Shown: one piece after another, positions 8,112-57,281 of the stretch
How positions within the stretch are numbered: position 1 is the first letter of the stretch
Layout of the letters: each line of letters starts with the position of its first letter
DNA from: Microgenomates group bacterium Gr01-1014_7
GTDB taxonomy: Bacteria > Patescibacteriota > Microgenomatia > Daviesbacterales > UBA10151
Length of the DNA stretch: 64,000 nucleotides
Direction of reading: 5' to 3'
Assembly (NCBI GenBank): GCA_007376405.1
Contig: VMGD01000003.1
Location: 336 to 64,335, forward strand
Translations under genes and position numbers: made by a program
The notes under the pieces: generated by a model
Told to the model about the DNA's origin: nothing
The model's input: the letters and a program-made list of their open reading frames with translations, nothing else
Databases searched by the model: none

Positions 8112-8139
8112 GTTAAAAGTGTAAAGTTAAAAGTGAAAA

Positions 8140-9432: not shown

Positions 9433-9438
9433 GTTCCA

Positions 9439-18952: not shown

Positions 18953-18953
18953 A

Positions 18954-18982
18954 TTGACATTTGTATAACAGTGTAATACAAT
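18954..18982 (+). promoter_or_regulatory. Promoter TTGACA, 17 bp spacer, TACAAT, abutting the ATG (leaderless)
   Basis: Read directly from the sequence. Confidence 0.45.
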
Positions 18983-36401: not shown

Positions 36402-36686
36402 ATGAAGAAAAAAATACGTAAAATACCAAGATTTAAAAATGAGGATGAGGAAAGGCAGTTTTGGTACACTCATTCACCGCTGGATTATCTTGATGATCTA
36501 AAACCTGTACAATTTGATTTTTCGGAGCTGAAACCGTCAACAAAAACCATCAGCATACGGTTGCCCCAATCTATGCTTGATCAGCTAAAAAGGCTGGCCA
36601 ATAAAAAAGATGTGCCCTATCAGTCATTACTGAAAATATTTTTGGGAGAAAAGATCAAAGAAGAAACAGTTGCAGTAAGCCCTTGA
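36402..36686 (+). CDS. brnA: BrnA-family antitoxin
   Basis: PRFKNEDEERQFWYTHSPLDY motif plus C-terminal RHH. Confidence 0.6.
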   Translation: MKKKIRKIPRFKNEDEERQFWYTHSPLDYLDDLKPVQFDFSELKPSTKTISIRLPQSMLDQLKRLANKKDVPYQSLLKIFLGEKIKEETVAVSP

Positions 36687-36719: not shown

Positions 36720-36944
36720 ATGGCTGTTCTTGAAGCTGAAAGAGAAATAACTCCAAGAGCGGAAGAAATTCTTACCCAATTTCCAACCAGACAATCAAGA
36801 TTAAGGGTTTTCGATGAACAAGGGTTACCTTTATCAGGAGAAGAAGCTTGGCTTATGCTTCCTGAACCAGACGAACACCCGTTACTTCGCAGTTTATTTA
36901 ATGTTGTGATAAGATTTCCTCATGCCGGAGCTTCCAGAAGTTGA
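36720..36944 (+). CDS. Hypothetical small protein
   Basis: ORF only. Confidence 0.2.
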   Translation: MAVLEAEREITPRAEEILTQFPTRQSRLRVFDEQGLPLSGEEAWLMLPEPDEHPLLRSLFNVVIRFPHAGASRS

Positions 36945-37788
36945 AACTATCAAGTTAGGTTTACAAAAGAAAATTATTGGGCTAAAAATTAAAGAAATAG
37001 AAATTATTTCTCCTAAATCTTTTATTGGAAATGCAAAATTAGTAAAGGGTAAGAAAGTACTCAATATTTGGAGAAAAGCAAAGATTTTAGGTGTGGAATT
37101 AGACGGATCAGTAATACTATTTCATCTGAAAATGACTGGGCAATTAATATTTGACCCTTCGACTTCGCTCAGGGCAAGTAAGCGTTTAATTGGGGGACAT
37201 CCGACGCAAGATATGGTTGGGCCGCTGCCGAATAAGTCTACAAGGGTCATTCTCCAGTTTTCAGATGGATCAAAGATGTACTTTAATGATCAGCGCAGGT
37301 TTGGCTGGATAAAAGTAGTTGAAAGTTCAAAGTTAAAAGTGCAAAGTTTTTTAAAAAATTTGGGACCGGAGCCGCTGGAGGAAAGATTTAGCTGGCAGAT
37401 TCTGAAACAGAATCTTTTAAAGCATAAATCTCAACCTGTAAAGGTTACTCTAATGGATCAAAAGCTAATTTCCGGAGTGGGAAATATTTATGCCAATGAA
37501 GCCTGTTTTAATGCCAAACTTGATCCCCGGAAAAAGGTAAGCAGTTTGAGTGATGAAGAATTTAGGACTTTACATAGAGGAGTGGTTAAAGCACTCCGGG
37601 ATGGAATAAAGTATGGGGGTTCAACCAGGGCTCATTTTGTAGATAGTGAGGGCCATAAAGGCTATTTTTTAGATTATGCGTATGTTTATTGGAAAAATTC
37701 CCACCCATGCAAAATTTGTGGTACAGAAATTAAAAAGGTCCAACTGGGCGGCCGCGGCACCTACTTCTGCCCAAATTGCCAGGCTTGA
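36922..37788 (+). CDS. mutM: Formamidopyrimidine-DNA glycosylase (Fpg/MutM)
   Basis: N-terminal MPELPEVE (catalytic Pro2); C-terminal zinc finger CKICGT...CPNCQ. Confidence 0.8.
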   Translation: MPELPEVETIKLGLQKKIIGLKIKEIEIISPKSFIGNAKLVKGKKVLNIWRKAKILGVELDGSVILFHLKMTGQLIFDPSTSLRASKRLIGGHPTQDMVGPLPNKSTRVILQFSDGSKMYFNDQRRFGWIKVVESSKLKVQSFLKNLGPEPLEERFSWQILKQNLLKHKSQPVKVTLMDQKLISGVGNIYANEACFNAKLDPRKKVSSLSDEEFRTLHRGVVKALRDGIKYGGSTRAHFVDSEGHKGYFLDYAYVYWKNSHPCKICGTEIKKVQLGGRGTYFCPNCQA

Positions 37789-37824: not shown

Positions 37825-38127
37825 ATGAATGTTGTTAAAGAAGTTTTAGAGTTTGAATGGGATAAAGGAAATACTGGTAAAAATTTAAAACATAATGTAG
37901 AGGATAAAGAAGCAGAAGAAACTTTTTTAGACGAACATAGGTTTATTTTTAAAGACAAATTACACTCACAGGGTGAAGAGCGCTTTAGAATAATAGGTAG
38001 AACCAGGGAAGGAAGATTATTATTTATAGTTTTTACTATACGAGGTGAGAAAGTTAGAATAATATCAGCTCGAGATATTAACAAAAAGGAGGTGTACTTA
38101 TATGAAAAAAAAGTTAGTATTACCTAA
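37825..38127 (+). CDS. brnT: BrnT-family toxin
   Basis: EFEWDKGNTGKNLKHNV...ERFRIIGRTREGRLLFIVFTIRGEKVRIISARD, the classic DUF497 pattern. Confidence 0.7.
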   Translation: MNVVKEVLEFEWDKGNTGKNLKHNVEDKEAEETFLDEHRFIFKDKLHSQGEERFRIIGRTREGRLLFIVFTIRGEKVRIISARDINKKEVYLYEKKVSIT

Positions 38128-38371
38128 ATTCAAAAATGAAGATGAGGAGAGAAAATTCTGGTGGAATTTAGATCTGTCGAAATATTATGAACCAGAGGAT
38201 TTGGAACCTGTTAGTTTTCCAAATTTAAAACCTACTACCAGGTCTATTTCGATTAGAATTCCGGAATATCTTTTAAATAGGGTTAAGGAAAAAGCTAATG
38301 CGATTAATATACCTTATCAGTCTCTGATTAAAGAGTATATTCACAAGGGAGTGTTAGCTTCTAAGTATTAA
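38102..38371 (+). CDS. brnA: BrnA-family antitoxin
   Basis: PKFKNEDEERKFWWNLDLSKYYEPEDLE plus RHH. Confidence 0.65.
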   Translation: MKKKLVLPKFKNEDEERKFWWNLDLSKYYEPEDLEPVSFPNLKPTTRSISIRIPEYLLNRVKEKANAINIPYQSLIKEYIHKGVLASKY

Positions 38372-39276: not shown

Positions 39277-40659
39277 ATGATATACAAACCGACATTTTCC
39301 TCGGTAATTGCAAACCGGGGATTTTTAAACCTGTGGGTTAATCAGATTTTAGTTCAGCTTTCCTATAATTCCTTAAATTTTGCTTTAATTATTTGGGTTT
39401 TTAGCTTAACAGGATCAAACATCGCAGTTTCCGCATTGTTATTTGCTATTTACATACCTGCTGTAATTTTGGGGCTTTTTGCCGGAGTTTTGGTGGATGT
39501 TACGGACAGAAAAAAGATAATTCTTTCAATCAATATTTTACTTTCCATTTCTTATTTCAGTCTGATCTTTTTCAAGGAGAGTTACTTTGCTATCCTAATA
39601 ATTGCTTTTTTTGTTAATGCCCTGGGCCAATTTTACGCCCCGGCAGAAGCATCAGCAATCCCTCTAATTGTTAAAAGAAGGGAGCTTATTACTGCCAATT
39701 CTATTTTTTCTGCTACTTTATATTCCTGTTTTCTTTTAGGATTCGGTTTGGCTGGCCCTTTAATTACTCATTTAGGAATTGATTTTGTTTTTGGATTTGA
39801 AGGGATAGCCTTGGCACTGGGCTTTATTTTTGCTTTGAGCTTTCCCTCCATTATTACCAGGCCGGATGAAGAGGGTAAAAAATTGCTGGTGGCTTTAAGG
39901 AAAAGAAAATTTTCCGATATTAAGGATATTGGTATTATTGAAATTGTCAGAACAATGAGGTTAATAAGGGGGAAGTTGTCGGTTGTAACCTCAATCGGGA
40001 TTCTGGCAGGAGTACAGATGGTGGTTGGAATTCTGGCAGTACTGATGCCTGGATTTTTGGAAAACTCCTTACGGATTAAAGCAACAGATGCATCTTATGT
40101 TTTAGTTATTCCCCTTGGTGCGGGAATAGTCACGGGTGGACTCGTTTTGGGAAAATTAGCACATAAATTTGTCAAAAGAATACTGGTAGGCAGAGCCATT
40201 GTTTTTGGAGGTTTACTTTTTTTTCTGGTTGGGATATCTCCAATCATTTCACCGGCAATTAACTATTTGCATAAACCCAAGGCCCTGGCCTTTTTTACCC
40301 AACCGTCCCTCTCTTCAGTGTTAATAGTCGGATCATTTCTTTTAGGCATAGCCATGGTTTCAATTTTGGTTCCATCCCAAACAGTCTTACAGGAAAATAC
40401 TCCGGAACAGGATCGGGGAAAAGTCTTTTCCGTTTTAGGGGTGGCTATGGCCGCTCTTTCTTTGATCCCGGTACTTTTAGCAGGTGTTTTGGCAGATCTT
40501 TTTGGAACAGCGCCGATTTTTACCGGATTGGGAGCAGTTATAATGTTAATAGGACTTTTGGGGCTCAAACCAAGCTTATTTTTTCCCGGTAAAAGCTTGC
40601 CATATAAGACAAAAGAATTTTTAGGACTGGGACACTGGACAAAGAGCAATGTTTCTTAA
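39277..40659 (+). CDS. MFS transporter
   Basis: 12 predicted TM helices; D-R-K-like loop motif GVLVDVTDRKKII. Confidence 0.6.
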   Translation: MIYKPTFSSVIANRGFLNLWVNQILVQLSYNSLNFALIIWVFSLTGSNIAVSALLFAIYIPAVILGLFAGVLVDVTDRKKIILSINILLSISYFSLIFFKESYFAILIIAFFVNALGQFYAPAEASAIPLIVKRRELITANSIFSATLYSCFLLGFGLAGPLITHLGIDFVFGFEGIALALGFIFALSFPSIITRPDEEGKKLLVALRKRKFSDIKDIGIIEIVRTMRLIRGKLSVVTSIGILAGVQMVVGILAVLMPGFLENSLRIKATDASYVLVIPLGAGIVTGGLVLGKLAHKFVKRILVGRAIVFGGLLFFLVGISPIISPAINYLHKPKALAFFTQPSLSSVLIVGSFLLGIAMVSILVPSQTVLQENTPEQDRGKVFSVLGVAMAALSLIPVLLAGVLADLFGTAPIFTGLGAVIMLIGLLGLKPSLFFPGKSLPYKTKEFLGLGHWTKSNVS

Positions 40660-41752
40660 AGCTTTTAATCTGACAAACTTCCGCAATTATGCCCGGCTGG
40701 AATTAAATTTCGATACACGCCCTACTATTTTAGTGGGTAATAATGCTGCCGGAAAATCTAATCTTCTGGAAGCTATTTATCTTCTTTCCACCACCAAATC
40801 TCTACGTGTTGAAACTGAAGATGAGTTGATTAAAGAAGGGGAGGAATTTGTCAGAGTGGAGGGATTTTTTCGTCCAGAGGACGACCAGCCTTTGGCTGGA
40901 GGTTCGGAAACCGAGCTTTTGGTAATAATCAACCGTTCTACAGAGCAAGTTAGCTTCAGGAAAAAAGTAATGGTTAACGGAATTTCCAAAAGAGCAGTTG
41001 ATTTTATTGGAAACTTACCGGCTGTAATTTTTTATCCTCAAGATATAAATATGGTAACCGGTGCTCCCAGCCTTCGCCGGTGGCATTTGGATTTAAGTCT
41101 TGCGCAAGTGGATTCTTCCTATAAAAAAACATTAACTTTATATGAGCAGATTTTAACTAATAGAAATAGAGTGTTAAAGAGCATCAGGGAAGGACAAGGG
41201 AAGGCAGATGAGCTTAAATACTGGACAGATGAGCTGGCAGAAAAGGGGGAAGGGGTAAGGGTAAAGCGTGAAGAATTCTTCAAGTTTATTAATAATCTGG
41301 AAAGTCCGTTGGGGGATTTTAGGTTTGAGTATTTACAGAGTCCGATTTCTGTAGAAAGATTAAGGGAAACAAATGGCAGGGAAGTGGCTGCGGCAGCAAC
41401 ATTGATAGGACCACATCGTGACGATTTTGTCGTCACGACCCTGAGCGAAGTCGAAGGGCAGGGATCACGTGATCTGGCACATTTCGGTTCAAGAGGTGAG
41501 CAAAGAACCGCTACTTTAGCCTTTAAATTAGCTCAGCTTGAATATATGGCTAAAATTTTGGGGAAGAGGCCAATACTTTTATTGGATGATGTTTTTTCCG
41601 AGCTGGATGCCAATCACCGGGCTCATGTGGTGGAAATAGTTGGCAAACAGCAAACAATCATTGCCACAGTTGAACTGGAAAATATTCCTAAATCCTTTTT
41701 AGATTCTGCAAGAATTCTTAAAGTGGAGGATGGAAAAATCAGCGGGAGTTGA
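40649..41752 (+). CDS. recF: DNA replication and repair protein RecF
   Basis: Walker A GNNAAGKSNLLEA; GPHRDD signature; carries palindromic insertions at 41417..41474. Confidence 0.8.
   Translation: MFLKAFNLTNFRNYARLELNFDTRPTILVGNNAAGKSNLLEAIYLLSTTKSLRVETEDELIKEGEEFVRVEGFFRPEDDQPLAGGSETELLVIINRSTEQVSFRKKVMVNGISKRAVDFIGNLPAVIFYPQDINMVTGAPSLRRWHLDLSLAQVDSSYKKTLTLYEQILTNRNRVLKSIREGQGKADELKYWTDELAEKGEGVRVKREEFFKFINNLESPLGDFRFEYLQSPISVERLRETNGREVAAAATLIGPHRDDFVVTTLSEVEGQGSRDLAHFGSRGEQRTATLAFKLAQLEYMAKILGKRPILLLDDVFSELDANHRAHVVEIVGKQQTIIATVELENIPKSFLDSARILKVEDGKISGS
41417..41474. repeat. Cluster of perfect palindromes inside recF (CGTGACGAttttGTCGTCACG; CCCTGAGCGAAGTCGAAGGGCAGGG, related to family A termini; GATCACGTGATC)
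   Basis: Read directly from the sequence. Confidence 0.5.
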
Positions 41753-42013: not shown

Positions 42014-43072
42014 ATGCCGAAAAAAATAACGCTACCGGGTCTGGTTGATGTGCACACACACTTGCGAGAACCCGGAGCTACCCAGAAAGAGGATTTTGAA
42101 ACAGGCACCAAGGCTGCGGCTGCAGGAGGTTATACGGTTATTTTAGACATGCCTAATAATCCTATTCCCACTGTTTCCCCGCAAGCTCTAGATCAAAAAA
42201 TAGCTTTGGCAACAGGCAGAATTTACTGTGATTTGGGTTTTCACTTTGGAGCAACAAAAGACTCAACAAAGCATTTTAATCTATTAAAAAATAAAATATT
42301 TGGTTTAAAAGTTTACATGAATCATACAACAGGGGATTTACTATTGGAAGATGGTCATATTTTGGAAGAAGTTTTCTCCAGATGGCCAAAGGGCAAGATT
42401 ATAATGGTTCATGCGGAAGGTGAAACACTAATTAAAGCGATAAATTTTGCCGGGAAATTTAAATCAAGGCTTCATGTTTGTCATATAGCCACAAAGCAGG
42501 AAATTGAACTTATAAAAAAAGCAAAAAAACAGGGATTAGATATTAGCTGTGAAGTTTCATGTCATCATTTATTCTTAACAGAAGAGGATGCAAAAAGCTT
42601 GGGTCCGTTTGGCAAGGTAAGGCCGCCACTGGCTACGGAAGAAGATAGAAAATCCCTGTGGGATAATCTGGACAGTATAGATATGATTGCCTCCGACCAT
42701 GCTCCTCATACCAAAGAGGAAAAAAACGGGCCCAATCCACCCAATGGAGTGCCGGGTTTGGAAACCAGTTTACCCTTGCTTTTAACAGCAGTTAGTGAAG
42801 GTAGATTAACTATAGAAAAGTTAATAGAGTTAACAAATGAAAACCCGAGAAGAATATTTAACATCCCGGATCAGCCCGATACTTTTATTGAAGTTGAATT
42901 TACTAAACCCTATATCCTAAACCCTATACCCTTGTTTACTAAATGCCACTGGACTCCTTTTGAAGGTATGGAAGTTAGAGGAAGGGTTAAAAGGGTAATT
43001 CTGCGTGGGCAAATTGTTTTTGAAGATGGCAAAATTTCCGGTCCGTTTGGAAAAGTAATATTCCCATCTTAA
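42014..43072 (+). CDS. pyrC: Dihydroorotase-like amidohydrolase
   Basis: DVHTHLREPG metal-binding motif; location in the pyr cluster. Confidence 0.7.
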   Translation: MPKKITLPGLVDVHTHLREPGATQKEDFETGTKAAAAGGYTVILDMPNNPIPTVSPQALDQKIALATGRIYCDLGFHFGATKDSTKHFNLLKNKIFGLKVYMNHTTGDLLLEDGHILEEVFSRWPKGKIIMVHAEGETLIKAINFAGKFKSRLHVCHIATKQEIELIKKAKKQGLDISCEVSCHHLFLTEEDAKSLGPFGKVRPPLATEEDRKSLWDNLDSIDMIASDHAPHTKEEKNGPNPPNGVPGLETSLPLLLTAVSEGRLTIEKLIELTNENPRRIFNIPDQPDTFIEVEFTKPYILNPIPLFTKCHWTPFEGMEVRGRVKRVILRGQIVFEDGKISGPFGKVIFPS

Positions 43073-43129: not shown

Positions 43130-43426
43130 ATGGATATTGATTTTGATGATTTAGAGGGTTTTGACTGGGATCAGGGCAATCTTGAGCATATTAAGAAACA
43201 TGATGTTGCCAGGGAAGAATGTGAGCAGTCATTTTTAAATAAGCCTGTTTTTATAAATAAAGATGAAACTCATTCACAGAAAGAAGAACGGTTTCGCCTT
43301 TACGGACAAACTGACAGTGCAAGATTAATAATTTTAATATTTACAATCAGAGATAAAAAAATTAGGGTAATCTCGGCAAGAGATCAAACTAAAATGGAAC
43401 GGGAAGAATTTAGAAAAAGGAGGTGA
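43130..43426 (+). CDS. brnT: BrnT-family toxin
   Basis: FDWDQGNLEHIKKHDV...ERFRLYGQTDSARLIILIFTIRDKKIRVISARD. Confidence 0.7.
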   Translation: MDIDFDDLEGFDWDQGNLEHIKKHDVAREECEQSFLNKPVFINKDETHSQKEERFRLYGQTDSARLIILIFTIRDKKIRVISARDQTKMEREEFRKRR

Positions 43427-43432: not shown

Positions 43433-43711
43433 ATGAAAAAGTTAAAAAAAATACCAAGATTTAAAAACGAAGATGAGGAAGATAAATTCTGGTCTACTCA
43501 CGATACCACTGATTACTTTGATTTTAGCAAAGCAATAGTTAATCCCAGCTTCCCAAACCTGAAGCCGTCTACAAGAAACATCACTATGAGGGTTTCTGAA
43601 TCAATGCTAAGAGATCTGAAGATGTTGGCCAATAAAAAGGATGTTCCGTACCAATCACTGGCTAAGATGTTTTTAGATGAGAAAATAAAGGAGGCACAAA
43701 TTAATAGTTGA
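43433..43711 (+). CDS. brnA: BrnA-family antitoxin
   Basis: PRFKNEDEEDKFWSTHDTTDYFD plus RHH. Confidence 0.65.
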   Translation: MKKLKKIPRFKNEDEEDKFWSTHDTTDYFDFSKAIVNPSFPNLKPSTRNITMRVSESMLRDLKMLANKKDVPYQSLAKMFLDEKIKEAQINS

Positions 43712-44783: not shown

Positions 44784-45812
44784 ATGCAGGGAAAACTTGT
44801 CCTGTCAGACGGGACTTATTTTTTAGGGGAAAGTTTTGGAGCTTTAGGTTCTACTTCAGGAGAGGTAGTTTTTAATACCGGCATGGTGGGGTATCCGGAA
44901 TCTTTAACTGATCCATCATATTTTGGCCAAATTCTGGTTTTAACATATCCACTGGCAGGAAATTATGGAGTCCCCAAAAAAGAATTCTGGGAATCCAAAA
45001 AAATTCAGGTAAAGGCTTTGATAGTACAAAATTATATTAATCATCCTTCACATTTTGAATCGGAAAGAAGTTTAGGTCAATGGCTTAAAGATGAGGGAAT
45101 ACCTGCACTTCAGGGAGTAGATACCCGAATGCTCACAAGAAAGCTTCGTCAGCATGGTGTTATGCTTGGAAAAATTGGGGATGCTAATATTTATGATCCC
45201 AATTATGAAAACCTCCTGCCATATGTCAGTACGGCTAAAGTAGAAACTTATGGCAGTGGCAGGAAAAATATTTTGCTTATTGATTGTGGGGCTAAAGAAA
45301 ATATTATCAGGAGTTTGATAAAGCGCGGAGTTAGGGTAACAAAAGTACCCTGGGATTTTAATCCCATGCGGGCAAAGTTTGATTTTGACGGAGTTTTTAT
45401 TTCCAATGGTCCCGGGAATCCAAAACAAGCTAAAAAAACTATAAAAAATGTTACAGGAATTTTAAAGCAAGGTATTCCTGCTTTGGGAATTTGCCTTGGT
45501 AGCCAGATTTTGGCTTTGGCAGCAGGAGGAAACACTTATAAATTAAAGTTTGGTCACAGAGGACAAAACCAGCCGGTTTTAAATTGCATTACTAATAAAT
45601 CCATAATCACTTCTCAAAATCACGGGTTTGCAGTTGATATGAAATCATTGGATTCAGGCTGGAGGGAGTGGTTTGTTAATTTAAATGACGGAACAAATGA
45701 AGGTATCAGGCACAAAAAAAGGCCATTTCTGGCAGTGCAGTTTCATCCGGAAGCTTCCCCCGGTCCATTAGACGCAAGTTATTTATTTGATGAATTTATT
45801 GGAGAATTATGA
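44784..45812 (+). CDS. carA: Carbamoyl-phosphate synthase small (glutaminase) subunit
   Basis: GICLGSQIL catalytic Cys; HPE motif. Confidence 0.85.
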   Translation: MQGKLVLSDGTYFLGESFGALGSTSGEVVFNTGMVGYPESLTDPSYFGQILVLTYPLAGNYGVPKKEFWESKKIQVKALIVQNYINHPSHFESERSLGQWLKDEGIPALQGVDTRMLTRKLRQHGVMLGKIGDANIYDPNYENLLPYVSTAKVETYGSGRKNILLIDCGAKENIIRSLIKRGVRVTKVPWDFNPMRAKFDFDGVFISNGPGNPKQAKKTIKNVTGILKQGIPALGICLGSQILALAAGGNTYKLKFGHRGQNQPVLNCITNKSIITSQNHGFAVDMKSLDSGWREWFVNLNDGTNEGIRHKKRPFLAVQFHPEASPGPLDASYLFDEFIGEL

Positions 45813-48800
45813 AGAAAGTACTAATTCTTGGTTCGGGAGCGCTAAAAATAGGTGAGGCCGGAGAATTTGATTACTCGGGCTCGCAAGCTTTAAAGGCCTT
45901 AAAAGAAGAAGGCGTTGCGACAGTTTTAATTAACCCTAATATTGCAACCATACAAACCTCAAAAGAGCTGGCTACTAAAGTTTACTTTTTACCGGTGACT
46001 CCCTATTTTGTCATCAGAGTAATTGAGAAAGAAAGGCCTGATGGGATTTTTTTATCATTTGGAGGGCAAACTGCCTTAAATTGTGGACTGGCACTTAATA
46101 AAAAGGGAGTTCTGAAAAAATATAATGTAGTTGTTTTAGGGACTCCTGTTAAAAGTATAGAGATAACTGAAGACAGGGAGCTTTTTGCTAAAGAGCTTGC
46201 AAAAATCGGGGTTAAAGTACCCATGGGGGGGTTTGCCAAGACTGTTGAGGATGCAAAAAAAATCGCTCACGGTTTAGGTTATCCGGTTTTGATAAGGTCC
46301 GGATTTTCTTTAGGAGGTTTGGGTTCAGGAATAATAGAAAAAGAAAAAGATTTAATAAAGATGGTTTCAGTAGCCTTAAAGCATGCCCCCCAAATAGCAG
46401 TTGAAGAGTATTTAAAACACTGGAAAGAAATAGAATATGAAGTGGTAAGAGATAATCTGGGTAATGAAATTACTGTCTGCAACATGGAAAACATGGATCC
46501 ATTAGGTATCCATACGGGGGAGAGTATTGTAGTTGCTCCATCTCAAACCCTTAATAATTATCAGTATCATATGCTCCGCAAGTTATCTTTGCAGGTAGTT
46601 GAACATTTAGGTGTAGTGGGAGAATGTAATATCCAGTTTGCTCTAAATCCCAAAGATAATGATTATCGGGTAATTGAAGTAAATGCCAGGTTATCCAGGT
46701 CATCTGCTCTGGCTTCAAAAGCAACAGGATATCCGCTTGCGTATATTGCCGCAAAGATTGGCCTGGATTATAACTTGTCTGATTTAAAAAATTCTGTTAC
46801 AGAATCTACCTCTGCCTTTTTTGAGCCGGCTCTGGATTATCTGGTGGTTAAAATTCCCCGCTGGGATTTGCAAAAATTCGCGGGAGCCAAAGAGTCTATT
46901 GGATCAGAAATGAAAAGCGTAGGTGAAGTAATGGCTATTGGCAGAAGTTTTCCTGAATGTCTGCAAAAGGGTGTAAGAATGCTGGAAACCGGCCAGGACG
47001 GACTTTTATCAAACGGGGTTGATGATACCAAACTTACACCTACTTCCGAGCGTCTTTTTGCCGTAGCCAAAAGACTGTCAAAGCTAGAAAGTGTTGATGA
47101 TATTTATCAGGAAACCGGTATTGACCCCTGGTTTTTATACCAGATTAAAAAAATAGTGGATTTTGAAATAAACTTAAAGAAAAAAAACCTTCTGGAAGCG
47201 AAAAAAATGGGATTTTCGGATAAAATAATTGCCAGAGCCTTTAAAAAAAGTGAAGAAGAGATCAGAAGTGACAGGAAAAAGCAGGGAATTGTCCCCAAAG
47301 TTAAGCATATTGATACTTTGGCAGCAGAGTATCCGGCAAAAACCAATTATTTGTATATGACTTATCATGGAGAGGAAAGTGAAGGGGAATCCCTCGACTA
47401 CGTTCGGGACAAGCGCGTGAAGCGTGAAGGGGAAAGCGAAAAAGCAATAGTCCTGGGGTCAGGGCCATACCGGATTGGGTCATCGGTTGAATTTGACTGG
47501 TGTTCGGTAACCGCGACGCAAACTCTAAAGAAAAAAGGAGTAGAGGTGGTACTAATAAATTGTAATCCTGAAACCGTTTCCACGGATTATGATATGGCAG
47601 ATAAACTGTACTTTGAAGAACTAACATTTGAACGTGTCAGTGATATTGCAGATATTGAGGGAGGGAATCTTGTATTATCTTTCGGAGGACAAATACCAAA
47701 CAATCTGGCAATGCCCGTATTCAAAGCAGGGTATAAAATTCTAGGCACGGCACCTCAAAATATTGACAAAGCAGAAGACCGGGATAAGTTTTCAAAGATT
47801 TTAGATAAATTAAATATTGGGCAACCGGCATGGAGAATCTTAAAATCCATTGATGATGCTATCGGGTTTGCCGGAATTATAACTTATCCTGTTTTAATCA
47901 GGCCTTCATATGTGCTTTCAGGATCAGCTATGAATGTTTGTTTTACCCCCCTGGAGTTAAAAAAATACTTAAAACAGGCAACAGAGGTTTCAAGTGAGCA
48001 TCCTGTGGTAATTTCCAAATTTATAGAAGGAGCCAAAGAAATAGAAATAGACGGAGTAGGGCAGGATGGTAAACTGATAATTTATGCTATTTCCGAACAT
48101 GTAGAAAATGCGGGGGTGCATTCCGGGGATGCAACTTTAGTTCTTCCCCCGCAAAAACTTTATCTGGAAACTGTCAGAAAGATCAAAGAAACTACTAAAA
48201 AAATACTGGCGGAGCTAAAAATAACCGGACCTTTTAATATCCAGTTTCTGGCAAAGAAAAATGAATTGCTTGTAATAGAGCTTAATTTACGCTCTTCCCG
48301 GTCTTTTCCCTTTGTTTCCAAAGTAACAGGCTATAATTTTGTGGATATGGCTACAAGGGTTATGCTGGGGGAGGATTTAAGAGGAGATTATCAGACAGTT
48401 GATCTTGACTACGTGGCAGTAAAAGCTCCACAATTTTCATTCCATCGGATCAAAGGGGCAGATCCAAGACTTCGGGTTGAAATGTCTTCAACAGGGGAGG
48501 TAGCCTGTTTTGGAGGGGATTTACAGGAAGCCTACTTAAAAGCTTTACTTTCTGTTGGATTTAAATTGCCTGAAAATGCGGTCTTTCTGGCACTGGGAGG
48601 GGATAAAAATAAACTTGATTTTTTACCTGCTGCCAAACTGTTAGTTTCCATGGGTCTTAAAATTTATGCTACGAAAGGAACTTCAAAATTTTTACAGGCA
48701 CAGGGGATAAACGCTACCCGTGCATTTAAAATCTCGGAGAAAAAATACCCCTCTGCTTTAGACTTGATGCAGCAGGGGAAAATAGATCTGGCTATTAATA

Positions 48801-48979
48801 TTTCCGAACCGGGGTCCGCAAAGGCAGAATCCGACGGGTTTGTTATCAGAAGAAACTGTGTTGATTTAGGAATTCCTTTAATTACCAATCTTCAGGCAGC
48901 GCAGCTTTTAATATCCTCTCTTTTTACCAAAAAAATAGAGGATCTGGAGATCAAATCCTGGGATGAGTATGTCAGATAG
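45809..48979 (+). CDS. carB: Carbamoyl-phosphate synthase large subunit; carries a short hairpin-repeat insertion at 47388..47415 in the inter-half linker
   Basis: Two ATP-grasp halves; 1056 aa; MGS-like C-terminal domain. Confidence 0.9.
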   Translation: MKKVLILGSGALKIGEAGEFDYSGSQALKALKEEGVATVLINPNIATIQTSKELATKVYFLPVTPYFVIRVIEKERPDGIFLSFGGQTALNCGLALNKKGVLKKYNVVVLGTPVKSIEITEDRELFAKELAKIGVKVPMGGFAKTVEDAKKIAHGLGYPVLIRSGFSLGGLGSGIIEKEKDLIKMVSVALKHAPQIAVEEYLKHWKEIEYEVVRDNLGNEITVCNMENMDPLGIHTGESIVVAPSQTLNNYQYHMLRKLSLQVVEHLGVVGECNIQFALNPKDNDYRVIEVNARLSRSSALASKATGYPLAYIAAKIGLDYNLSDLKNSVTESTSAFFEPALDYLVVKIPRWDLQKFAGAKESIGSEMKSVGEVMAIGRSFPECLQKGVRMLETGQDGLLSNGVDDTKLTPTSERLFAVAKRLSKLESVDDIYQETGIDPWFLYQIKKIVDFEINLKKKNLLEAKKMGFSDKIIARAFKKSEEEIRSDRKKQGIVPKVKHIDTLAAEYPAKTNYLYMTYHGEESEGESLDYVRDKRVKREGESEKAIVLGSGPYRIGSSVEFDWCSVTATQTLKKKGVEVVLINCNPETVSTDYDMADKLYFEELTFERVSDIADIEGGNLVLSFGGQIPNNLAMPVFKAGYKILGTAPQNIDKAEDRDKFSKILDKLNIGQPAWRILKSIDDAIGFAGIITYPVLIRPSYVLSGSAMNVCFTPLELKKYLKQATEVSSEHPVVISKFIEGAKEIEIDGVGQDGKLIIYAISEHVENAGVHSGDATLVLPPQKLYLETVRKIKETTKKILAELKITGPFNIQFLAKKNELLVIELNLRSSRSFPFVSKVTGYNFVDMATRVMLGEDLRGDYQTVDLDYVAVKAPQFSFHRIKGADPRLRVEMSSTGEVACFGGDLQEAYLKALLSVGFKLPENAVFLALGGDKNKLDFLPAAKLLVSMGLKIYATKGTSKFLQAQGINATRAFKISEKKYPSALDLMQQGKIDLAINISEPGSAKAESDGFVIRRNCVDLGIPLITNLQAAQLLISSLFTKKIEDLEIKSWDEYVR
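47388..47415. repeat. Hairpin repeat family B copy (AATCCCTCGACTACGTTCGGGACAAGCG) in carB, flanked by the 11-bp direct repeat GTGAAGGGGAA (47379-47389 and 47424-47434)
   Basis: Read directly from the sequence. Confidence 0.55.
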
Positions 48980-50421: not shown

Positions 50422-52134
50422 ATGACATTTGCTAAACTTTCCCAATATTTTGAAAAACTTGAAGAAACATCCTCCAGACTTATCTTAATTGATATTTTAT
50501 CCGAACTTTTTTTTAAGGTGAGAGCTGATGAAATTGGGATGGTTTCCTATCTTTTGCAGGGAAGAGTAGCCCCATTTTATGAACCAATTGAGATGGGAAT
50601 GTCGGAAAAGCTGGTAGCTCAAGCCATGGCCCGAGCTTACGGGGTGGATCGCGAGCAAGTGCTCAAGGAATATGGAAGAGCGGGGGATTTGGGGAAGGTG
50701 GCGGAGAAATTTGCAAAAGAATTAAGAATCAAGAATAAAGAATTAAGCGTAGAAGAAGTGTTTAAAATCTTAACTGAAATTGCCAAAACTACAGGGGATG
50801 GGACCGTAGAAAAGAAAATAGCTCTTCTTGCAGGTTTACTCTCAAAAATGGATGGAGTTTCGGCTAAACACCTGGTAAGAATTCCCCTTGGGGTACTGCG
50901 GCTGGGGATAGGTGATCCAACTATTTTGGATGCTTTTTCCCTCGCATACGCTCGGGACAGGGCCAAACGTCCGATACTTGAAGCTGCATATAATAAAGTT
51001 TCGGATTTGGGTTTAGTGGGAGAAACTTTATCGAAGGGCGGGCTAAAGGCTGTTGAAAGATTAAGTGTAACAGTCGGGCGTCCAATAAGATCACAACTGG
51101 CAGAAAGATTACCAACTCCTGAAAAAGTTATTGAAAAAATGGGAACTGTTAATGCGCAAAGAAAATTAGATGGCTTTAGGGTGGCTATACATAAGAAAGC
51201 TAGCGAAGTAAGGCTTTTTTCCAGGAATCTGGAGGAAACAACCCCCATGTTTCCGGAAATAGTTGAAGGAGCAAAGAAACAAATTAAAGCTAAAAGTGTA
51301 ATTCTTGATGCCGAAGCCATTGGTTTTAATCCTATTTCCGGTGAATTTTTGCCCTTTCAGGAAACAACTCAAAGAAGAAGAAAGTATGGCATTGAAGAAA
51401 TGGCCAAAAAAATCCCTCTTAAGACTTTTTGTTTTGATATTTTATACAAGGATGGGACATCCTTGATCGATCAGCCTTTGGCTGCTCGATTAAAAACGTT
51501 AAAAAATACAATCAAAGACGGAGAAGTGCTTTTTCCCGAACTGGGAATAGTGGTTGAGACGGCTAAAAAATTGCAAATAATGCTGGATGAGAGTATTTCG
51601 GAAGGACTAGAGGGTTTGGTTGTTAAGAGGTTGGATAGCAAATATGAGGCCGGAGCCAGAAATTTTAACTGGGTAAAACTAAAAAGGCACTCAGATGGTG
51701 AGCTTAGAGATACAATTGATTGCGTGATTTTGGGTTATATTTATGGCAGGGGAAAAAGAGCATCATTCGGTGCGGGCGCGCTACTTGTTGGTGTTTACGA
51801 TGAGTCGCAAGACGAATTCGTGACAGTCAGTAAAATAGGAACCGGTTTAACAGATGAAGAGTTTAGGGAAATTCGAAGGAGGGCAGATAAAATTAAGGTT
51901 GATAAGCAGCCCGCTAGAGTCAATTCCATTTTAAAGCCTTCAGTTTGGATTGCTCCGGAAATTGTAATTGAAGTTTTGGCAGATGAAATAACCAGAAGCC
52001 CGATTCACAGCGCAGGCTATGCCCTGCGTTTCCCCAGACTTATTAAATTCCGCGAGGCCGACAAAAAAGCCGAAGACGCAACTACGGTTAAAGAGTTAAT
52101 TGAGATGTATCATCAGCAGTTTAAGAAAATATAA
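50422..52134 (+). CDS. ATP-dependent DNA ligase (archaeal/eukaryotic LigB type)
   Basis: KLDGFRV (KxDG adenylation motif I); three-domain length of 570 aa. Confidence 0.8.
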   Translation: MTFAKLSQYFEKLEETSSRLILIDILSELFFKVRADEIGMVSYLLQGRVAPFYEPIEMGMSEKLVAQAMARAYGVDREQVLKEYGRAGDLGKVAEKFAKELRIKNKELSVEEVFKILTEIAKTTGDGTVEKKIALLAGLLSKMDGVSAKHLVRIPLGVLRLGIGDPTILDAFSLAYARDRAKRPILEAAYNKVSDLGLVGETLSKGGLKAVERLSVTVGRPIRSQLAERLPTPEKVIEKMGTVNAQRKLDGFRVAIHKKASEVRLFSRNLEETTPMFPEIVEGAKKQIKAKSVILDAEAIGFNPISGEFLPFQETTQRRRKYGIEEMAKKIPLKTFCFDILYKDGTSLIDQPLAARLKTLKNTIKDGEVLFPELGIVVETAKKLQIMLDESISEGLEGLVVKRLDSKYEAGARNFNWVKLKRHSDGELRDTIDCVILGYIYGRGKRASFGAGALLVGVYDESQDEFVTVSKIGTGLTDEEFREIRRRADKIKVDKQPARVNSILKPSVWIAPEIVIEVLADEITRSPIHSAGYALRFPRLIKFREADKKAEDATTVKELIEMYHQQFKKI

Positions 52135-52711: not shown

Positions 52712-55330
52712 ATGGCATATGTAGCTGATTTGCATATTCATTCCAGATTTTCCAGGGCTTGTTCACAACAACTTAATATTCCAAATTTAGTAGAGTGGGC
52801 CAAATTAAAAGGCATAAATCTTTTAGGGACAGGGGATTTTTTACACCCACTTTGGCTAACAGAATTAAAACATCAGCTTAAAGAAGATGGGTCAGGGTTT
52901 TTAAAGGGTAAAGCGGAAAGCGTAAAGGGGGAAGAGGTAAGATTTGTTCTGACAGTAGAGATTGCTTCAATGTATTCTCATGGAGGCAGAGGCAGAAGAA
53001 TCCATAATCTGGTTTTTATGCCCGGCTTTGAGGCTGCTGAAAAATTCCAAAAAGCACTTTTAGCAAGAAGAGCAACTTTAGCTTCAGATGGTAGGCCAAT
53101 TGTAGGTATTCCCTCAAAAGAACTTCTGCAGATGGCGCTAACTGCTGACAAAAAAGCCATTTTTATTCCGGCTCACTGTGTCTTACCCGATACCCAAGTG
53201 CACACTGTTAAAGGAATGCAAGAAATACAAAGCATAAAGCCAGGTGATTTAGTTTATACCCACAATAATCGTAAAAGAGAGGTAACAGAAGTCATCAAAC
53301 ACGAGCACGACGGGACTTTATACAAAATTCAACCTTGGTATTTCTCTCCTGGTTTAGAAGCGACCGAAGAACACCCTTATTATGGTTTCCATATAAAATA
53401 TTGTCCTTCAACTGGTTCTCCTTGCCTTCCTACAGAAGCACATAAAAGAAGATGTAAACATAAATTTTATGAACAATATATCCCAATATGGCTTCCTGCA
53501 CAGGATTTAAGAGATGGAGATGTTTTGGTTTTTCCTAGATTTACTAATACTACACCAATGCCAACGCTTTTTTTAGATAAAGAATTAGCATATCAAGCCG
53601 TAGGTGAGTTAATCAAAACAGGAGGTTCAAGAGGCCATATTTTTAACCAGCAAATTCAAATTGATGAGAGCTTTTGCAGATTAATTGGCTACTATTTAGC
53701 TGAAGGTTCCCTTAGTACAACAAAAGGACACATAAGCCTCGCATTTAATCAGAGTGAGAGTGTGTATATTGAAGATGTAAAGCAATTGATTGAGAAAGTA
53801 TTTGGAATAAAGCATATACGCATATATAGAAGATTAAATAATAAGGGGGTGGAGATAACCATTTATTCTAAATTAATTTCAGAACTTTTTGCCAAACTTT
53901 TTTATACAGACAATTCGCATAAAGCATTTAATAAGAATTTACCTGACTGGATGCTTCATTTGCCAGAATTTCTGCAGGCTCAAATCTTGCTAGGATGGTG
54001 GAGGGGTGATCATGGTTATACTGTTTCGCGATCTTTAATGAATCAAATGAAAGTTATTTGTTTACGTCTGGGGATTGTTCCCTCGATAGGTGTTGACAAA
54101 TCAGAGAATCATCTTAAGAGAGGAAATCATATATATCAGGATAGAATTATCAAAGCAACTTCAGATCTTTATTACTTCTCCGGGCTTGCTTTTTTTGAAG
54201 ATAAATATAATCTTTTAAGTGATCCTGTATTTGAGGAATCTAAGCGTAAACTTACAAGAAGACATGGATGGATTGATAAAGACTATATCTATATGCCTAT
54301 CCGTAAAATTACCAGGAGGAAGTATACAGGGGAGGTTTTTAATTTGGAGGTAGACGAAGATAATTCCTATATAACTGAATTTGCTGCAGTACATAATTGC
54401 TGGACGCCCTGGTTTGGTCTATTTGGGTCCGAAAGTGGATATGATTCGCTAGAGGAGTGTTTTGAGGATTTAACAGACCATGTGTATGGGATTGAAACCG
54501 GGCTCTCAAGCGATCCGGCTATGAACTGGAGGATAAAGGAACTTGATAACCGCTCAATTATTTCCTGTTCTGATGCGCATTCCTTGCCAAATCTGGGAAG
54601 AGAGGCAACGGTGATAGAAGGGGAATTTAGCTATAATGGTTTATGGAAAGCTGTTTCTAACCCTTCTATCATTCTGAGGCCGAAGGCCGAAGAATCCCCC
54701 ACGAATGTGGGTTCTGACATTCGTCAGAGGTCCTTCGCTAAAGCTCAGGACGACAATAGAATTGTCGGTACCATTGAATTTCATCCTGAGGAAGGGAAAT
54801 ATCATTATACCGGACACAGAAACTGCGGAGTTAAATATGATTCGGAACAGGAAGTTGCAAACGGGGTTATTTGTCCAAAGTGCAAAAGACCCTTAACCGT
54901 GGGAGTAATGAGTAGAGTAGAGAAGATCGCAGGGCGATCAGTAGATGAAGTAGGGATGTTAGAGGATGAGCAGGGAATAATCAAAAGCAAGGTCTTTAAT
55001 AGGCCGGGATACCGGATGTTAGTCCCGCTTTTGCAGATTATTGCGGAAGCGCTACACTCTACTCCAACAAGCCAAAAAGTATTAAACGAGTATAAAAAGT
55101 TAGCAATTAATCTGGGTGGAGAAATTAAGGTTTTAACTAAGGTTGATGTGTCGGAAATTGCCAAACTTTCCGGCCCCAGAATTACTGAAGGGGTGGAAAG
55201 AATGAGAAAAGGTACTATTGTAATTGATCCCGGATATGATGGAGTCTATGGAGTGGTAAAAATATGGCCCGATGGGGAATCGATTGAAGAAAGTAGCGCA
55301 GAAGCTCCACAGTTGGGATTGTTTGATTAG
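52712..55330 (+). CDS. PHP-domain phosphoesterase with a C-terminal Zn ribbon (COG1379-like), interrupted by an intein
   Basis: N-terminal DLHIHSRFS PHP motif; CPKCKRPLTVG zinc ribbon; intein at codons 156-562. Confidence 0.65.
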   Translation: MAYVADLHIHSRFSRACSQQLNIPNLVEWAKLKGINLLGTGDFLHPLWLTELKHQLKEDGSGFLKGKAESVKGEEVRFVLTVEIASMYSHGGRGRRIHNLVFMPGFEAAEKFQKALLARRATLASDGRPIVGIPSKELLQMALTADKKAIFIPAHCVLPDTQVHTVKGMQEIQSIKPGDLVYTHNNRKREVTEVIKHEHDGTLYKIQPWYFSPGLEATEEHPYYGFHIKYCPSTGSPCLPTEAHKRRCKHKFYEQYIPIWLPAQDLRDGDVLVFPRFTNTTPMPTLFLDKELAYQAVGELIKTGGSRGHIFNQQIQIDESFCRLIGYYLAEGSLSTTKGHISLAFNQSESVYIEDVKQLIEKVFGIKHIRIYRRLNNKGVEITIYSKLISELFAKLFYTDNSHKAFNKNLPDWMLHLPEFLQAQILLGWWRGDHGYTVSRSLMNQMKVICLRLGIVPSIGVDKSENHLKRGNHIYQDRIIKATSDLYYFSGLAFFEDKYNLLSDPVFEESKRKLTRRHGWIDKDYIYMPIRKITRRKYTGEVFNLEVDEDNSYITEFAAVHNCWTPWFGLFGSESGYDSLEECFEDLTDHVYGIETGLSSDPAMNWRIKELDNRSIISCSDAHSLPNLGREATVIEGEFSYNGLWKAVSNPSIILRPKAEESPTNVGSDIRQRSFAKAQDDNRIVGTIEFHPEEGKYHYTGHRNCGVKYDSEQEVANGVICPKCKRPLTVGVMSRVEKIAGRSVDEVGMLEDEQGIIKSKVFNRPGYRMLVPLLQIIAEALHSTPTSQKVLNEYKKLAINLGGEIKVLTKVDVSEIAKLSGPRITEGVERMRKGTIVIDPGYDGVYGVVKIWPDGESIEESSAEAPQLGLFD
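53177..54397 (+). mobile_element. Intein (407 aa) with a LAGLIDADG homing-endonuclease domain
   Basis: Block A: Cys1 followed by VLPDTQV; two LAGLIDADG blocks (LIGYYLAEGS, ILLGWWRGDHG); C-terminal ...AAVHN followed by the extein Cys. Confidence 0.75.
54673..54754. repeat. Palindromic element family A, copy 1 (82 bp), in frame inside the PHP/intein gene C-extein
   Basis: Conserved termini TCTGAGGCCGAAGGCCGAAGAATC ... TCCTTCGCTAAAGCTCAGGACGAC (imperfect TIRs); internal hairpins CCCAC/GTGGG and CTGAC/GTCAG. Confidence 0.6.
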
Positions 55331-55951
55331 ATGAAGATATTCAAGGATAGACAATCTGCAGGTCAGTTACTCGCTAAACGTCTTAAAAACATCCATGCTG
55401 ATCTGGTTTTGGGGATTCCTAGAGGTGGGGTGGTGGTGGCTGCCGAGGTAGCAAAGATTCTTAAGCTACCTCTGGACATTATTGTTACCCGTAAAATAGG
55501 CGCTCCAATGCAGCCGGAATTGGCACTTGGTGCAGTTGATCCGGACGGGGAATGTATCTGGGAAGGGAATTTACTAAAAGATTTAAGATTAAAGATTAAT
55601 GATTTAGGAGAAATAATTCAGAATGAATGGAAAGAGTTAAAGAGGAGAGAAGATTTGTATAGAGGGGAAAAACCGCCGCTTAAGCCCGAAGGAAAAATTG
55701 TCATTCTGGTTGATGATGGGATTGCTACAGGTGCAACAACTCTTGCTGCCATAAATTTTCTAAAAAGACATAAGGCTAAAGAGATTATTCTCGCTGTGCC
55801 TGTTGCCAGCAAAGAATCAGCTGAAAGATTAACTGAGCAGATAGATGAAGCAATGATCCTGGAAACTCCGGATTATTTCCAGGCCGTGGGCCAGTTTTAT
55901 CAAAGTTTCTTACCTGTTTCTGATGAAGAGGTGGTACAATTTCTTTCATGA
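55331..55951 (+). CDS. Type I phosphoribosyltransferase domain protein
   Basis: VILVDDGIATGATTLAA PRPP-binding motif. Confidence 0.55.
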   Translation: MKIFKDRQSAGQLLAKRLKNIHADLVLGIPRGGVVVAAEVAKILKLPLDIIVTRKIGAPMQPELALGAVDPDGECIWEGNLLKDLRLKINDLGEIIQNEWKELKRREDLYRGEKPPLKPEGKIVILVDDGIATGATTLAAINFLKRHKAKEIILAVPVASKESAERLTEQIDEAMILETPDYFQAVGQFYQSFLPVSDEEVVQFLS

Positions 55952-56721: not shown

Positions 56722-57281
56722 AAATCATTGTCGGATTGGGAAATCCGGAGGATAAATATAAATCAGTCAGGCATAATTTGGGATTTATGGCGGTGGATAA
56801 ATTAGTATCGAGTATTAAGTATGAAGTATTATGGGAAGACAATAAAAAGTTTAAGTCTCAAATTGCCCGAGTTTCACCCGAACTTTTAGTAGCAAAGCCG
56901 CAGACTTATATGAATAATTCGGGAATGGCAGTGAAGTTACTGGCTGATTACTACAAAGTTTCTCCTGCAGATATTGTCATTATTTATGATGAGTTGGATT
57001 TACCTCTGGGAAAAATTAAAGTACGTTTAGGTGGAGCAGCAGCAGGGCATCATGGTGTGGAATCAATCATTGATGCACTGGGTACGGATCAATTTATCAG
57101 GGTAAGACTTGGGATTGGGAATTTAAGAACCCAAAGCTCCGAACACAAACATGCTCATGTTAATGCGGAGAAATTTGTGCTGGAACCTTTTATGCACTCT
57201 GAAAAAGCGCAAGTAAAACATATGATTAAGCAGGCAATTAAACTATTGCACAAAATTATTACAACTGGTAAACTAAATTGA
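56718..57281 (+). CDS. pth: Peptidyl-tRNA hydrolase
   Basis: MKIIVGLGNPEDKY...RHNLGF N-terminal signature. Confidence 0.85.
   Translation: MKIIVGLGNPEDKYKSVRHNLGFMAVDKLVSSIKYEVLWEDNKKFKSQIARVSPELLVAKPQTYMNNSGMAVKLLADYYKVSPADIVIIYDELDLPLGKIKVRLGGAAAGHHGVESIIDALGTDQFIRVRLGIGNLRTQSSEHKHAHVNAEKFVLEPFMHSEKAQVKHMIKQAIKLLHKIITTGKLN

Follow-up and report, generated by a model that had tools for sequence, protein, structure and literature searches.

A sequence shared by carB and a DUF3105 gene

The window analysed here is a 64,000-nt stretch of Microgenomates group bacterium Gr01-1014_7, a Daviesbacteria-like bacterium of the Candidate Phyla Radiation (CPR); its CarB protein is 100% identical to P0001, and the closest relatives of this protein are from Daviesbacteria. 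Two genes of the window, carB and a DUF3105 gene, contain the same short sequence, which includes a 24-nt unit that recurs in the window and in many other genomes and is the subject of this report. The two host genes are:

45809-48979, + strand: carB, carbamoyl-phosphate synthase large subunit, with Pfam CPSase domains
58025-58621, + strand: DUF3105 gene

The shared 28-mer, 5′-AATCCCTCGACT[A/G]CG[T/C]TCGGGACAAGCG-3′, is located at 47388-47415 and 58310-58337, on the + strand in both cases; against these two matches, none was obtained in 100 dinucleotide-preserving shuffles. The carB copy is read as SLDYVRDKR and the DUF3105 copy as NPSTALGTS, in a frame shifted by one, which agrees with a preliminary description of this DNA that placed the similarity at the nucleotide and not the protein level. 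The two copies differ solely at 47400 (A/G) and 47403 (T/C), the two degenerate positions of the family described below.

Six units in the window

Using the 12-nt core TCGACTNCGYTC with at most two mismatches, located between four perfectly complementary bases (4/4 Watson-Crick stem), we scanned the window for members of the family. Six units were identified, all inside open reading frames (ORFs), compared with an expectation of 0.04 from Markov-simulated sequence; the density is about one unit per 10 kb, and the first-noticed pair represents two of the six. With stem, core, complementary stem and tail separated by dashes, the units are:

37155-37178, + strand: fpg/mutM unit, CCCT-TCGACTTCGCTC-AGGG-CAAG, in ORF 36922-37788, read as PSTSLRAS
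41435-41458 (tabulated at 41439), - strand: recF unit, CCCT-TCGACTTCGCTC-AGGG-TCGT, antisense in the recF ORF 40649-41752, read as TLSEVEGQ
47390-47413, + strand: carB unit, TCCC-TCGACTACGTTC-GGGA-CAAG, in the linker between the two halves of CarB, read as SLDYVRDK; an exact 24-nt gap in the MAFFT alignment with locus L240
50938-50961, + strand: DNA ligase unit with a degenerate core, TCCC-TCGCATACGCTC-GGGA-CAGG, in the ATP-dependent ligase ORF 50422-52134, read as SLAYARDR
58312-58335, + strand: DUF3105 unit, TCCC-TCGACTGCGCTC-GGGA-CAAG, directly after the conserved HSLEHGY..KC motif, read as PSTALGTS
62288-62311, + strand: divergent mevalonate-diphosphate decarboxylase unit, CCTT-TCGGCTGCGCTC-AAGG-TCAA, antisense to codons 5-11 of ORF 61314-62321 (- strand)

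The stem is TCCC/GGGA in three of these units, CCCT/AGGG in two and CCTT/AAGG in one. In the family as a whole, the unit has a first stem strand of 4 nt, then the conserved 12-nt core, a second stem strand (4 nt, complementary to the first) and finally a CAAG (YRRN) tail, in a constant register. The variable stem forms the very start of the unit, and the only tail is the 3′ one, with CAAG, CGAA, CAGG and TGAC as its variants.

The fpg unit sits in a loop that is ~19 amino acids longer than in solved MutM structures, and RecF has ~7 extra residues at the unit site compared with solved RecF. The decarboxylase unit may lie upstream of the true start codon of its ORF, the Pfam domain of which begins at amino acid 16.

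Three of the six units are located in genome-maintenance genes, i.e., fpg (36922-37788), recF (40649-41752) and the DNA ligase gene (50422-52134), in a small sample that was considered post hoc. DNA-uptake sequences are said to have a similar bias, going by the title of a 2004 work of Davidsen. A bias towards replication and repair genes has been described for intragenic repetitive extragenic palindromic (REP) sequences (PMC3733652).

The unit is gained or lost as an exact 24-nt block

Exact 24-nt presence/absence was observed in three independent cases: the carB linker, the loop of another unit, and the apices of REP hairpins. In the carB ortholog P0089 (L240), the linker reads AGT GAA GGG GAA AGC GTG AAG CGT GAA GGG GAA AGC. 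The linker of the window equals this sequence plus TCCCTCGACTACGTTCGGGACAAG and one substitution, and MAFFT aligned the two with a single 24-nt gap. The unit-free form, AGTGAAGGGGAAAGCGTGAAGCGTGAAGGGGAAAGC, lacks the hairpin and holds both copies of the direct repeat that surrounds the unit in the window. The ortholog comparison thus supports the earlier suggestion that the carB segment is an insertion without counterpart in other orthologs.

The second case comes from the DUF3105 gene. One ortholog (L245) carries an intact unit, CACC-TCGACTTCGCTC-AGTG, and in another (P0132, L246, positions 51-671) a second 24-nt unit, CGGT-TCGGCTACGCTC-ACCA-CAAG, is nested in the loop of a unit of the L245 type, as TCGAC^[CGGTTCGGCTACGCTCACCACAAG]TTCGCTC. 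The nesting is exact and keeps the reading frame. Other DUF3105 orthologs have, at the same site, units of the family with other stems.

In the third case, a GTAG-type REP hairpin at locus L095 is filled by a unit at its apex, GTAGGGGCGCAATA[TCCTTCGACTTCGCTCAGGACAAG]TATTGCGCCCCTAC, and lies near an empty one, GTAGGGGCGCAAGATATTGCGCCCCTAC; the same filled/empty pattern of host hairpins was observed at L159, L206 and L126. Neither the nested insertion in L246 nor the REP-apex insertions show a target duplication. Additionally, tandem arrays with a 24-nt period were found (L197 and others).

The indel is thus a discrete 24-nt block, gained or lost in the same register in independent contexts. Twenty-four nucleotides correspond to eight codons, and the unit is free of stops in all frames except for one reverse frame when N = A; therefore, insertions keep the reading frame.

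Distribution across bacteria

The exact 24-mer TCCCTCGACTNCGYTCGGGACAAG was found in at least 119 stretches of species-representative genomes, which, according to their record titles, belong to at least 16 phylum-level groups; the sequence YCCYTCGACTNCGYTCRGGR was found in at least 120 viral-contig stretches, with GC contents from 0.31 to 0.73. The groups with the 24-mer include Pseudomonadota (among them the cultured Sphingobium boeckii, Sphingomonas cavernae and S. vulcanisoli), Acidobacteriota, Planctomycetota, Chloroflexota, Ignavibacteria, Omnitrophota, Verrucomicrobiota, Zixibacteria, Latescibacterota, Cyanobacteriota, Spirochaetes, Nitrospinota, Vulcanimicrobiota, Saganbacteria, WOR-1 and many lineages of Patescibacteria, including four Daviesbacteria. 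Approximately 20 of the 24 nt are conserved across phyla. The REP-like dispersed repeat inside coding sequences that the preliminary description proposed is therefore real, with further copies both in the window and in other genomes; what we encountered was neither an absence of other copies nor orthologous carB genes with the same segment and no repeat signature.

Genome loci around the units were taken as 8-kb pieces of the species-representative genomes. Linked genes were searched for in an all-against-all BLASTP comparison of the 2975 ORFs located within 1.5 kb of units. Those that formed recurrent clusters encode phage proteins (portal, capsid, tail and terminase), which appear because those loci are viral. 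The motif strand coincides with the G-rich strand in 89 of 137 viral-locus matches (p = 6e-4) and in five of the six units of the window.

At six loci (L218, from Daviesbacteria, and L196, L201, L237, L165 and L151), the unit occurs in a composite, cacc(c/t)cgg(g/a)ggagtc[24-mer]c(g/a)(g/a)gcccacc..cg(g/a)ggtg, with an 11-bp outer stem. This composite recurs inside very long ORFs, with two copies in a 1263-amino-acid open frame in L218.

A covarying four-base-pair stem

The preliminary description assigned an 8-bp bulged hairpin to each of the carB and DUF3105 copies. No such hairpin was predicted when the copies were folded as RNA with their flanks (z = +0.4 and +0.5 for the two; -1.9 to +0.5 over the copies folded). 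Bare 24-mers folded as DNA gave -1 to -3 kcal/mol for a 4-bp stem with a 12-nt loop, with z near 0, i.e., no better than shuffles. An overlapping second hairpin, CGCTCG-GGA-CAAGCG, was also considered and was dropped because the sequence beyond CAAG is not conserved in other genomes. Rfam 15 gave no match above the gathering score at any unit of the window or in 18 unit-bearing loci.

Covariation was examined in 2.07 Mb of sequence with 356 occurrences of the core. Each of the four stem pairs is Watson-Crick in 91-97% of them, and G-T wobbles occur in one or two of the 356. The 71 occurrences outside the retrieval patterns contain other complementary stems, such as TGCT/AGCA, TGTC/GACA, GGCT/AGCC, TGGT/ACCA and CACT/AGTG. 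In an unbiased scan, all four pairs were Watson-Crick in 28 of 95 matches, with less than one expected. The same was observed at a single orthologous site: in the DUF3105 gene, the stem is TCCC/GGGA in the window and CACT/AGTG in L244, so that all four pairs have changed and both stems are complementary. By this comparative evidence, only the outer four base pairs are supported. The structure-preserving drift suggested earlier for the two first copies holds in a weak sense, their differences falling at loop positions that are degenerate throughout the family; the real signal is the stem covariation among family members and not between these two copies.

With respect to ORFs, units occur in either orientation and in every phase; at low-GC loci, 10 had the same orientation as the ORF and 10 the opposite one, and 65% were located in open frames of at least 150 amino acids, compared with 85% of random positions. 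Taken together, the covariation, the near absence of wobble pairs and this lack of a fixed strand or phase speak for a structure formed in DNA, or for recognition assisted by a protein, rather than for an RNA element.

Direct repeats and heptamers around the units

The carB unit is bracketed by an 11-bp perfect direct repeat, GTGAAGGGGAA, with a spacing of 45 nt, and both the carB and the DUF3105 units adjoin period-7 repeats. The elements concerned are:

47379-47389, + strand: first copy of GTGAAGGGGAA, part of a heptamer-type module
47414-47437, + strand: remainder of the heptamer-type linker module, CGC GTGAAGC GTGAAGGGGAAAGC, which includes the second copy of GTGAAGGGGAA at 47424-47434
58297-58311, + strand: period-7 tandem repeat AAGTGTA x2.1 (Tandem Repeats Finder, TRF), abutting the DUF3105 unit and overlapping conserved Lys-Cys codons

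The 11-bp repeat had been likened to a target-site duplication. This comparison fails because the unit-free L240 allele carries both copies: its two GTGAAGGGGAAAGC sequences are 21 nt (three heptamers) apart, and in the window the unit splits the first of them. The carB module as a whole follows a period-7 pattern, GTGAAGG GGAAAGC GTGAAGC GTGAAGG GGAAAGC, in which TRF reported GCGTGAA x2.1 at 47415-47429. Judged from these alignments, the carB direct repeat is pre-existing period-7 repeat DNA, not a target-site duplication or insertion scar. At the DUF3105 gene, the flanks AAAGTG(T/A)AA are AAAGTGTAA (58303-58311) and AAAGTGAAA (58341-58349). Upstream, AAGTGT corresponds to the conserved Lys-Cys codons of the gene, while the downstream VKSEKLEEAT is common to the orthologs.

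The carB module (GTGAAGGGGAAAGC GTGAAGC GTGAAGGGGAAAGC, region 47367-47451) is identical to that of L240 at 35 of 36 positions, while the genes overall are 69.9% identical; it is the top-scoring of the 3107 36-nt windows in this alignment, though the linker is hypervariable in other orthologs. This suggests that the linker module may itself be a shared or homogenised repeat.

Repeats are also associated with the units of other genomes. Among 120 of these units, exact direct repeats of at least 8 nt bracket 14% and flanking inverted repeats of at least 8 nt occur at 16%, compared with 1% of controls in both cases. A period-7 array lies no more than 30 nt from 11% of units, compared with 2.3% of controls, and no more than 250 nt from 27%, compared with 9.7%; periods 6, 8 and 9 gave no comparable excess near units. 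In the window, TRF identified 12 period-7 arrays, the commonest short-repeat class there, and five of the six units lie less than 200 nt from one of them.

Other period-7 repeats of the window are located at 8110-8146, 31836-31866, 31994-32030, 37317-37348, 41243-41261, 42903-42932, 50717-50747, 54677-54692, 55577-55604 and 56811-56831. AAGTGAA x5.3 directly follows a tRNA-Met gene, AAGAATT x4.4 lies inside the ligase gene, and there are arrays inside a glycosyltransferase gene and inside fpg.

Host sites as hot spots of repeat-derived sequence

Among 120 CarB orthologs, the stretch from EESE to KAIVLGSGP has a length of ~13 to 60 residues and is occupied by peptides that derive from repeats. 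In L241, the carB linker contains an inverted pair of family units, in frame. In a Daviesbacterium carB (L360:51-3428), the linker contains an in-frame inverted dimer with the halves (T)GTC-ATTCCTGC-GAAT-GCAGGAAT-CCA and TGG-ATCCCCGC-CTGT-GCGGGGAT-GACA, which is read as VIPANAGIQ...LDPRLCGDD and has similar peptides in P0029, P0065 and P0113; this dimer fits the description of CGTC REPs by Di Nocera et al. 2013 (PMC3733652). The DUF3105 site after HSLEHGY..C likewise accommodates heptamer-type repeats, other hairpin families and small CCCCTTCGGGG hairpins, with the 24-nt unit in a sub-clade.

Origin of the shared sequence

What we observed is a multi-copy family with a covarying stem, present or absent as a discrete 24-nt indel without target duplication, nested at hairpin apices and associated with heptamers. 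On this basis, the sequence that carB and the DUF3105 gene have in common is probably, with reasonable rather than high confidence, a copy of a dispersed, non-autonomous REP-like mini-element that is mobile as a 24-nt block. The unit would be copied into transiently single-stranded DNA, such as the apical loops of hairpins and palindromes or slipped heptamer repeats. A trans-acting enzyme would recognise the small hairpin and its conserved loop; it could be of the HUH/Y1 type, as in REP/RAYT (REP-associated tyrosine transposase) or IS200/IS605 systems, or another enzyme that cleaves and joins single-stranded DNA, and insertion would proceed without target duplication. The weak tendency of the motif strand to be the G-rich one would agree with single-strand insertion. 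In gene-dense CPR genomes, the copies that survive would be those landing in tolerant protein loops and linkers, where they would be read in whichever frame they fall, since the unit has eight codons and essentially no stops.

Several observations weigh against an active mobile element. No recent presence/absence polymorphism between near-identical strains was found: the closest carB relative is 79% identical, and when metagenomes were scanned for filled and empty alleles of the carB linker module (its halves separated by 0-30 nt), there were 0 matches. Each of the empty sites could in principle be a precise deletion and not the ancestral state. The ~20/24 identity across phyla is hard to explain for a purely selfish element, unless horizontal transfer is very frequent or the recognising machine is conserved. 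In the 8-kb pieces, no mobilising enzyme was found, and no protein family occurs near units in more than three of the 119 genome loci. The G-rich-strand bias does not reach significance in the genome loci (70 of 123), and the free hairpin is thermodynamically marginal as both RNA and DNA. Additionally, the ligase of the window does not differ in length from the Sulfolobus solfataricus ligase (2hiv); an insertion was therefore rejected for this copy, which we retain as a degenerate member, and not every copy is a clean insertion.

Homology-driven copying without a dedicated enzyme, by gene conversion, fork annealing of single-stranded fragments or template switching between loci that share repeats, is the main rival, although we consider it rather unlikely. 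The flanking repeats would then be the homology used and not a structural target, which would account for the enrichment of units between direct or inverted repeats and beside period-7 arrays, for the AAGTG-type heptamers that both the carB and DUF3105 copies abut, and for the lack of a transposase near units; the carB module, as the best-conserved 36 nt between 70%-identical orthologs, also suggests homogenisation at the DNA level. However, the flanks of the carB and DUF3105 copies match at only ~6 of 9 nt, and copying of this kind accounts neither for the same 24-nt register in contexts as unrelated as a linker, another unit's loop and the apices of GTAG REPs, nor for the near-identity across phyla, its first entry into each genome needing another route. 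Selection in place of a functional element, either an RNA hairpin (for the processing or stability of mRNA, or for ribosome pausing) or a DNA site, for instance an uptake sequence or protein operator, appears improbable. The conserved core with its covarying stem and the presence of half of the window units in genome-maintenance genes would suit such a function, and CPR bacteria are thought to depend on DNA uptake. Nevertheless, the units have no fixed strand or phase with respect to genes, G-U pairs are nearly absent, folding energies are no better than those of shuffles and there is no Rfam match; the density of ~1 per 10 kb in the window and the pan-phylum distribution are unlike those of lineage-specific uptake sequences, and a static site predicts neither exact 24-nt indels nor tandem arrays.

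A classical cut-and-paste miniature transposon that duplicated the 11-bp target GTGAAGGGGAA in carB is highly unlikely. The perfect repeat around the carB copy, with its 45-nt spacing, and the direct repeats flanking units in other genomes are what such a transposon would leave. However, the unit interrupts the first of two repeats that stand 21 nt apart in the unit-free L240 allele, no duplication accompanies the L246 nesting or the REP apices, and AAGTGT in the upstream DUF3105 flank is accounted for by conserved Lys-Cys codons; L240 thus refutes an 11-bp duplication at carB, unless it is itself a secondary excision product that retained the duplication. Chance, or protein-level convergence of two unrelated coding sequences, has nothing in its favour beyond the shortness of the match and has practically no probability left; it is refuted by the lack of matches in shuffles, by the different reading frames, and by the copy number, with six members against 0.04 expected and hundreds of copies elsewhere.

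Returning to a 24-nt mobile element, a broader proposal can be put forward tentatively, and we regard it as doubtful. Among the palindromic repeats of bacteria, the 24-mer could represent a third superfamily, as yet undescribed: a mini-hairpin that is a pan-bacterial "guest", with a conserved 12-nt loop that would be recognised by a widely conserved, possibly housekeeping, single-strand DNA enzyme. Inserted as exactly eight codons into single-stranded loops (REP apices, slipped heptamers), it would remodel linkers such as that of CarB in streamlined CPR genomes, and it might link heptamer and hairpin repeats mechanistically. If a conserved enzyme does mobilise the unit, the latter would be a very small, defined substrate for studies of single-strand DNA insertion. 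It would, in that case, also account for spurious "hypothetical protein" peptides that keep recurring and for hypervariable segments, among them the linker of CarB and the loop of DUF3105. In annotation, the 24-mer is a practical marker of repeat-derived protein segments.

Other features of the window

A group I intron was identified at 4255-4447 on the - strand (Rfam, 73.7 bits). After in silico removal of ~4243-4437, ARAGORN calls a tRNA on the minus strand, the identity of which (Leu-CAA or Met-CAT) varies with the exact boundary, and the region 4243-4437 looks like part of an intron-interrupted tRNA gene in a CPR genome. An 872-amino-acid ORF at 52712-55330 (+ strand) has the Pfam domains LAGLIDADG_3, Intein_splicing and Hint_2 and corresponds to an intein-containing gene. 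Three further repeat families, D1-D3 (9436-9562, 18950-19076 and 43166-43225; also 36407-36472, 38104-38169 and 43435-43500), represent small neighbouring genes in pairs, of ~90-100 amino acids, in paralogous copies that have diverged to 67-77% identity; these pairs may be repeated toxin-antitoxin-like modules.

Comparison with known systems

The literature searched gave no relevant paper for the motif string, its reverse complement or its six-frame peptides. The motif is absent from the searched supplements on the Geobacter metallireducens "class 4 multicopy sequence similar to many genomes" (PMC2700814). Resemblances to the tRNA T-arm, the hammerhead core, integron attC sites, the pMV158 nick site and the CAAG/GAAC target of IS91 were dropped upon comparison of the sequences by eye.

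Rickettsia palindromic elements (RPE) are ~100-150 bp long and are known from Rickettsia. Like RPE and Cod-2 (Cozzuto et al. 2008, PMC2267715; reviews by Delihas, PMC3184786 and PMC2229807), which are selfish palindromic repeats located in frame inside genes, read as different peptides in each frame and tolerated in surface loops, the 24-nt unit is found in frame, in the CarB linker and in DUF3105, Fpg and RecF loops. In contrast to RPE, it measures 24 nt, is pan-bacterial and is present here in a CPR genome.

There is a close likeness in form to REP sequences, their doublets forming hairpins (REPIN) and the GTAG and CGTC superfamilies (Di Nocera et al. 2013, PMC3733652). Both consist of a short palindromic unit (20-40 nt in REPs, 24 nt here) with many dispersed copies in several phyla, as singletons, inverted dimers and clusters, some of them intragenic in linkers or loops; inverted dimers of the 24-nt unit were found at the sphingomonad loci L169, L175, L184, L203, L214 and L219, in addition to the carB linker of L241. 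CGTC REPs are without a dedicated transposase (PMC3733652); for the 24-nt unit, none was found in the 8-kb pieces. However, the 24-nt unit lacks a terminal GTAG or CGTC tag. In REPs, a stem of 5-13 bp largely carries the family identity and G-T stem pairs are reported as frequent (PMC3733652), whereas here the stem has 4 bp, is variable and has almost no G-T pairs, and the loop and the CAAG tail are conserved. The unit is also a guest of REPs, nesting in the apical loops of GTAG REPs, and its exact 24-mer is common to at least 16 phyla. As for the association with RAYT genes, often flanked by REPs, that characterises REPs, no recurrent protein family was found within 1.5 kb of units in the 8-kb pieces.

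Transposition of IS200/IS605 and the action of RAYT on REPs (Quentin et al. 2018, PMC6006769) involve recognition of a small imperfect hairpin, no target duplication and a preference for single-stranded targets. The 24-nt unit would share these features, the preference being suggested by the hairpin apices and the weak G-rich-strand excess. IS200/IS605-like elements are biased in orientation towards the lagging-strand template; for the 24-nt unit, the G-rich strand carries the motif in 89 of 137 viral-locus matches, in 70 of 123 genome-locus matches (not significant) and in five of the six window units. No tnpA or RAYT gene was found near the unit in the 8-kb pieces, and, unlike these systems, the unit forms a single hairpin instead of two distinct ends and shows no evident conserved target tetranucleotide. 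Miniature inverted-repeat transposable elements differ in that they duplicate their target sites, which L240, L246 and the REP apices do not show; of terminal inverted repeats such as those matching an autonomous IS, the 24-nt unit has only its 4-bp variable stem. DNA uptake sequences (DUS) and uptake signal sequences (USS) are lineage-specific, with a 9-12-nt core and ~1 copy per kb, whereas the 24-nt unit has ~1 copy per 10 kb in the window and occurs in at least 16 phyla. Heptanucleotide repeats of the short tandemly repeated repetitive (STRR) type (MacGregor 2015, PMC4679880) are reported to be the commonest short-repeat class in most bacterial genomes, as they are in the window, and flank the carB and DUF3105 copies; they differ in being the neighbourhood of the unit and not the element. 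The fivefold co-localisation of period-7 repeats and the 24-mer was not found described in the literature searched.

The kind of element is thus already known: intragenic REPs in linkers and loops, REP superfamilies that cross phyla and CGTC REPs without transposase are documented (PMC3733652), as are tiny repeats read in different frames (Cod-2, PMC2267715; PMC3184786, PMC2229807), so the 24-mer overturns nothing; the 24-nt family itself is one of which we found no description in the literature searched. What goes beyond the descriptions that we found is an insertion block of exactly 24 nt, stop-free and frame-neutral, the conservation of ~20 of its 24 nt over at least 16 phyla, including ultra-small CPR genomes that are usually thought to be poor in mobile DNA, and its systematic placement next to heptanucleotide repeats and in the apices of hairpin repeats of other kinds.

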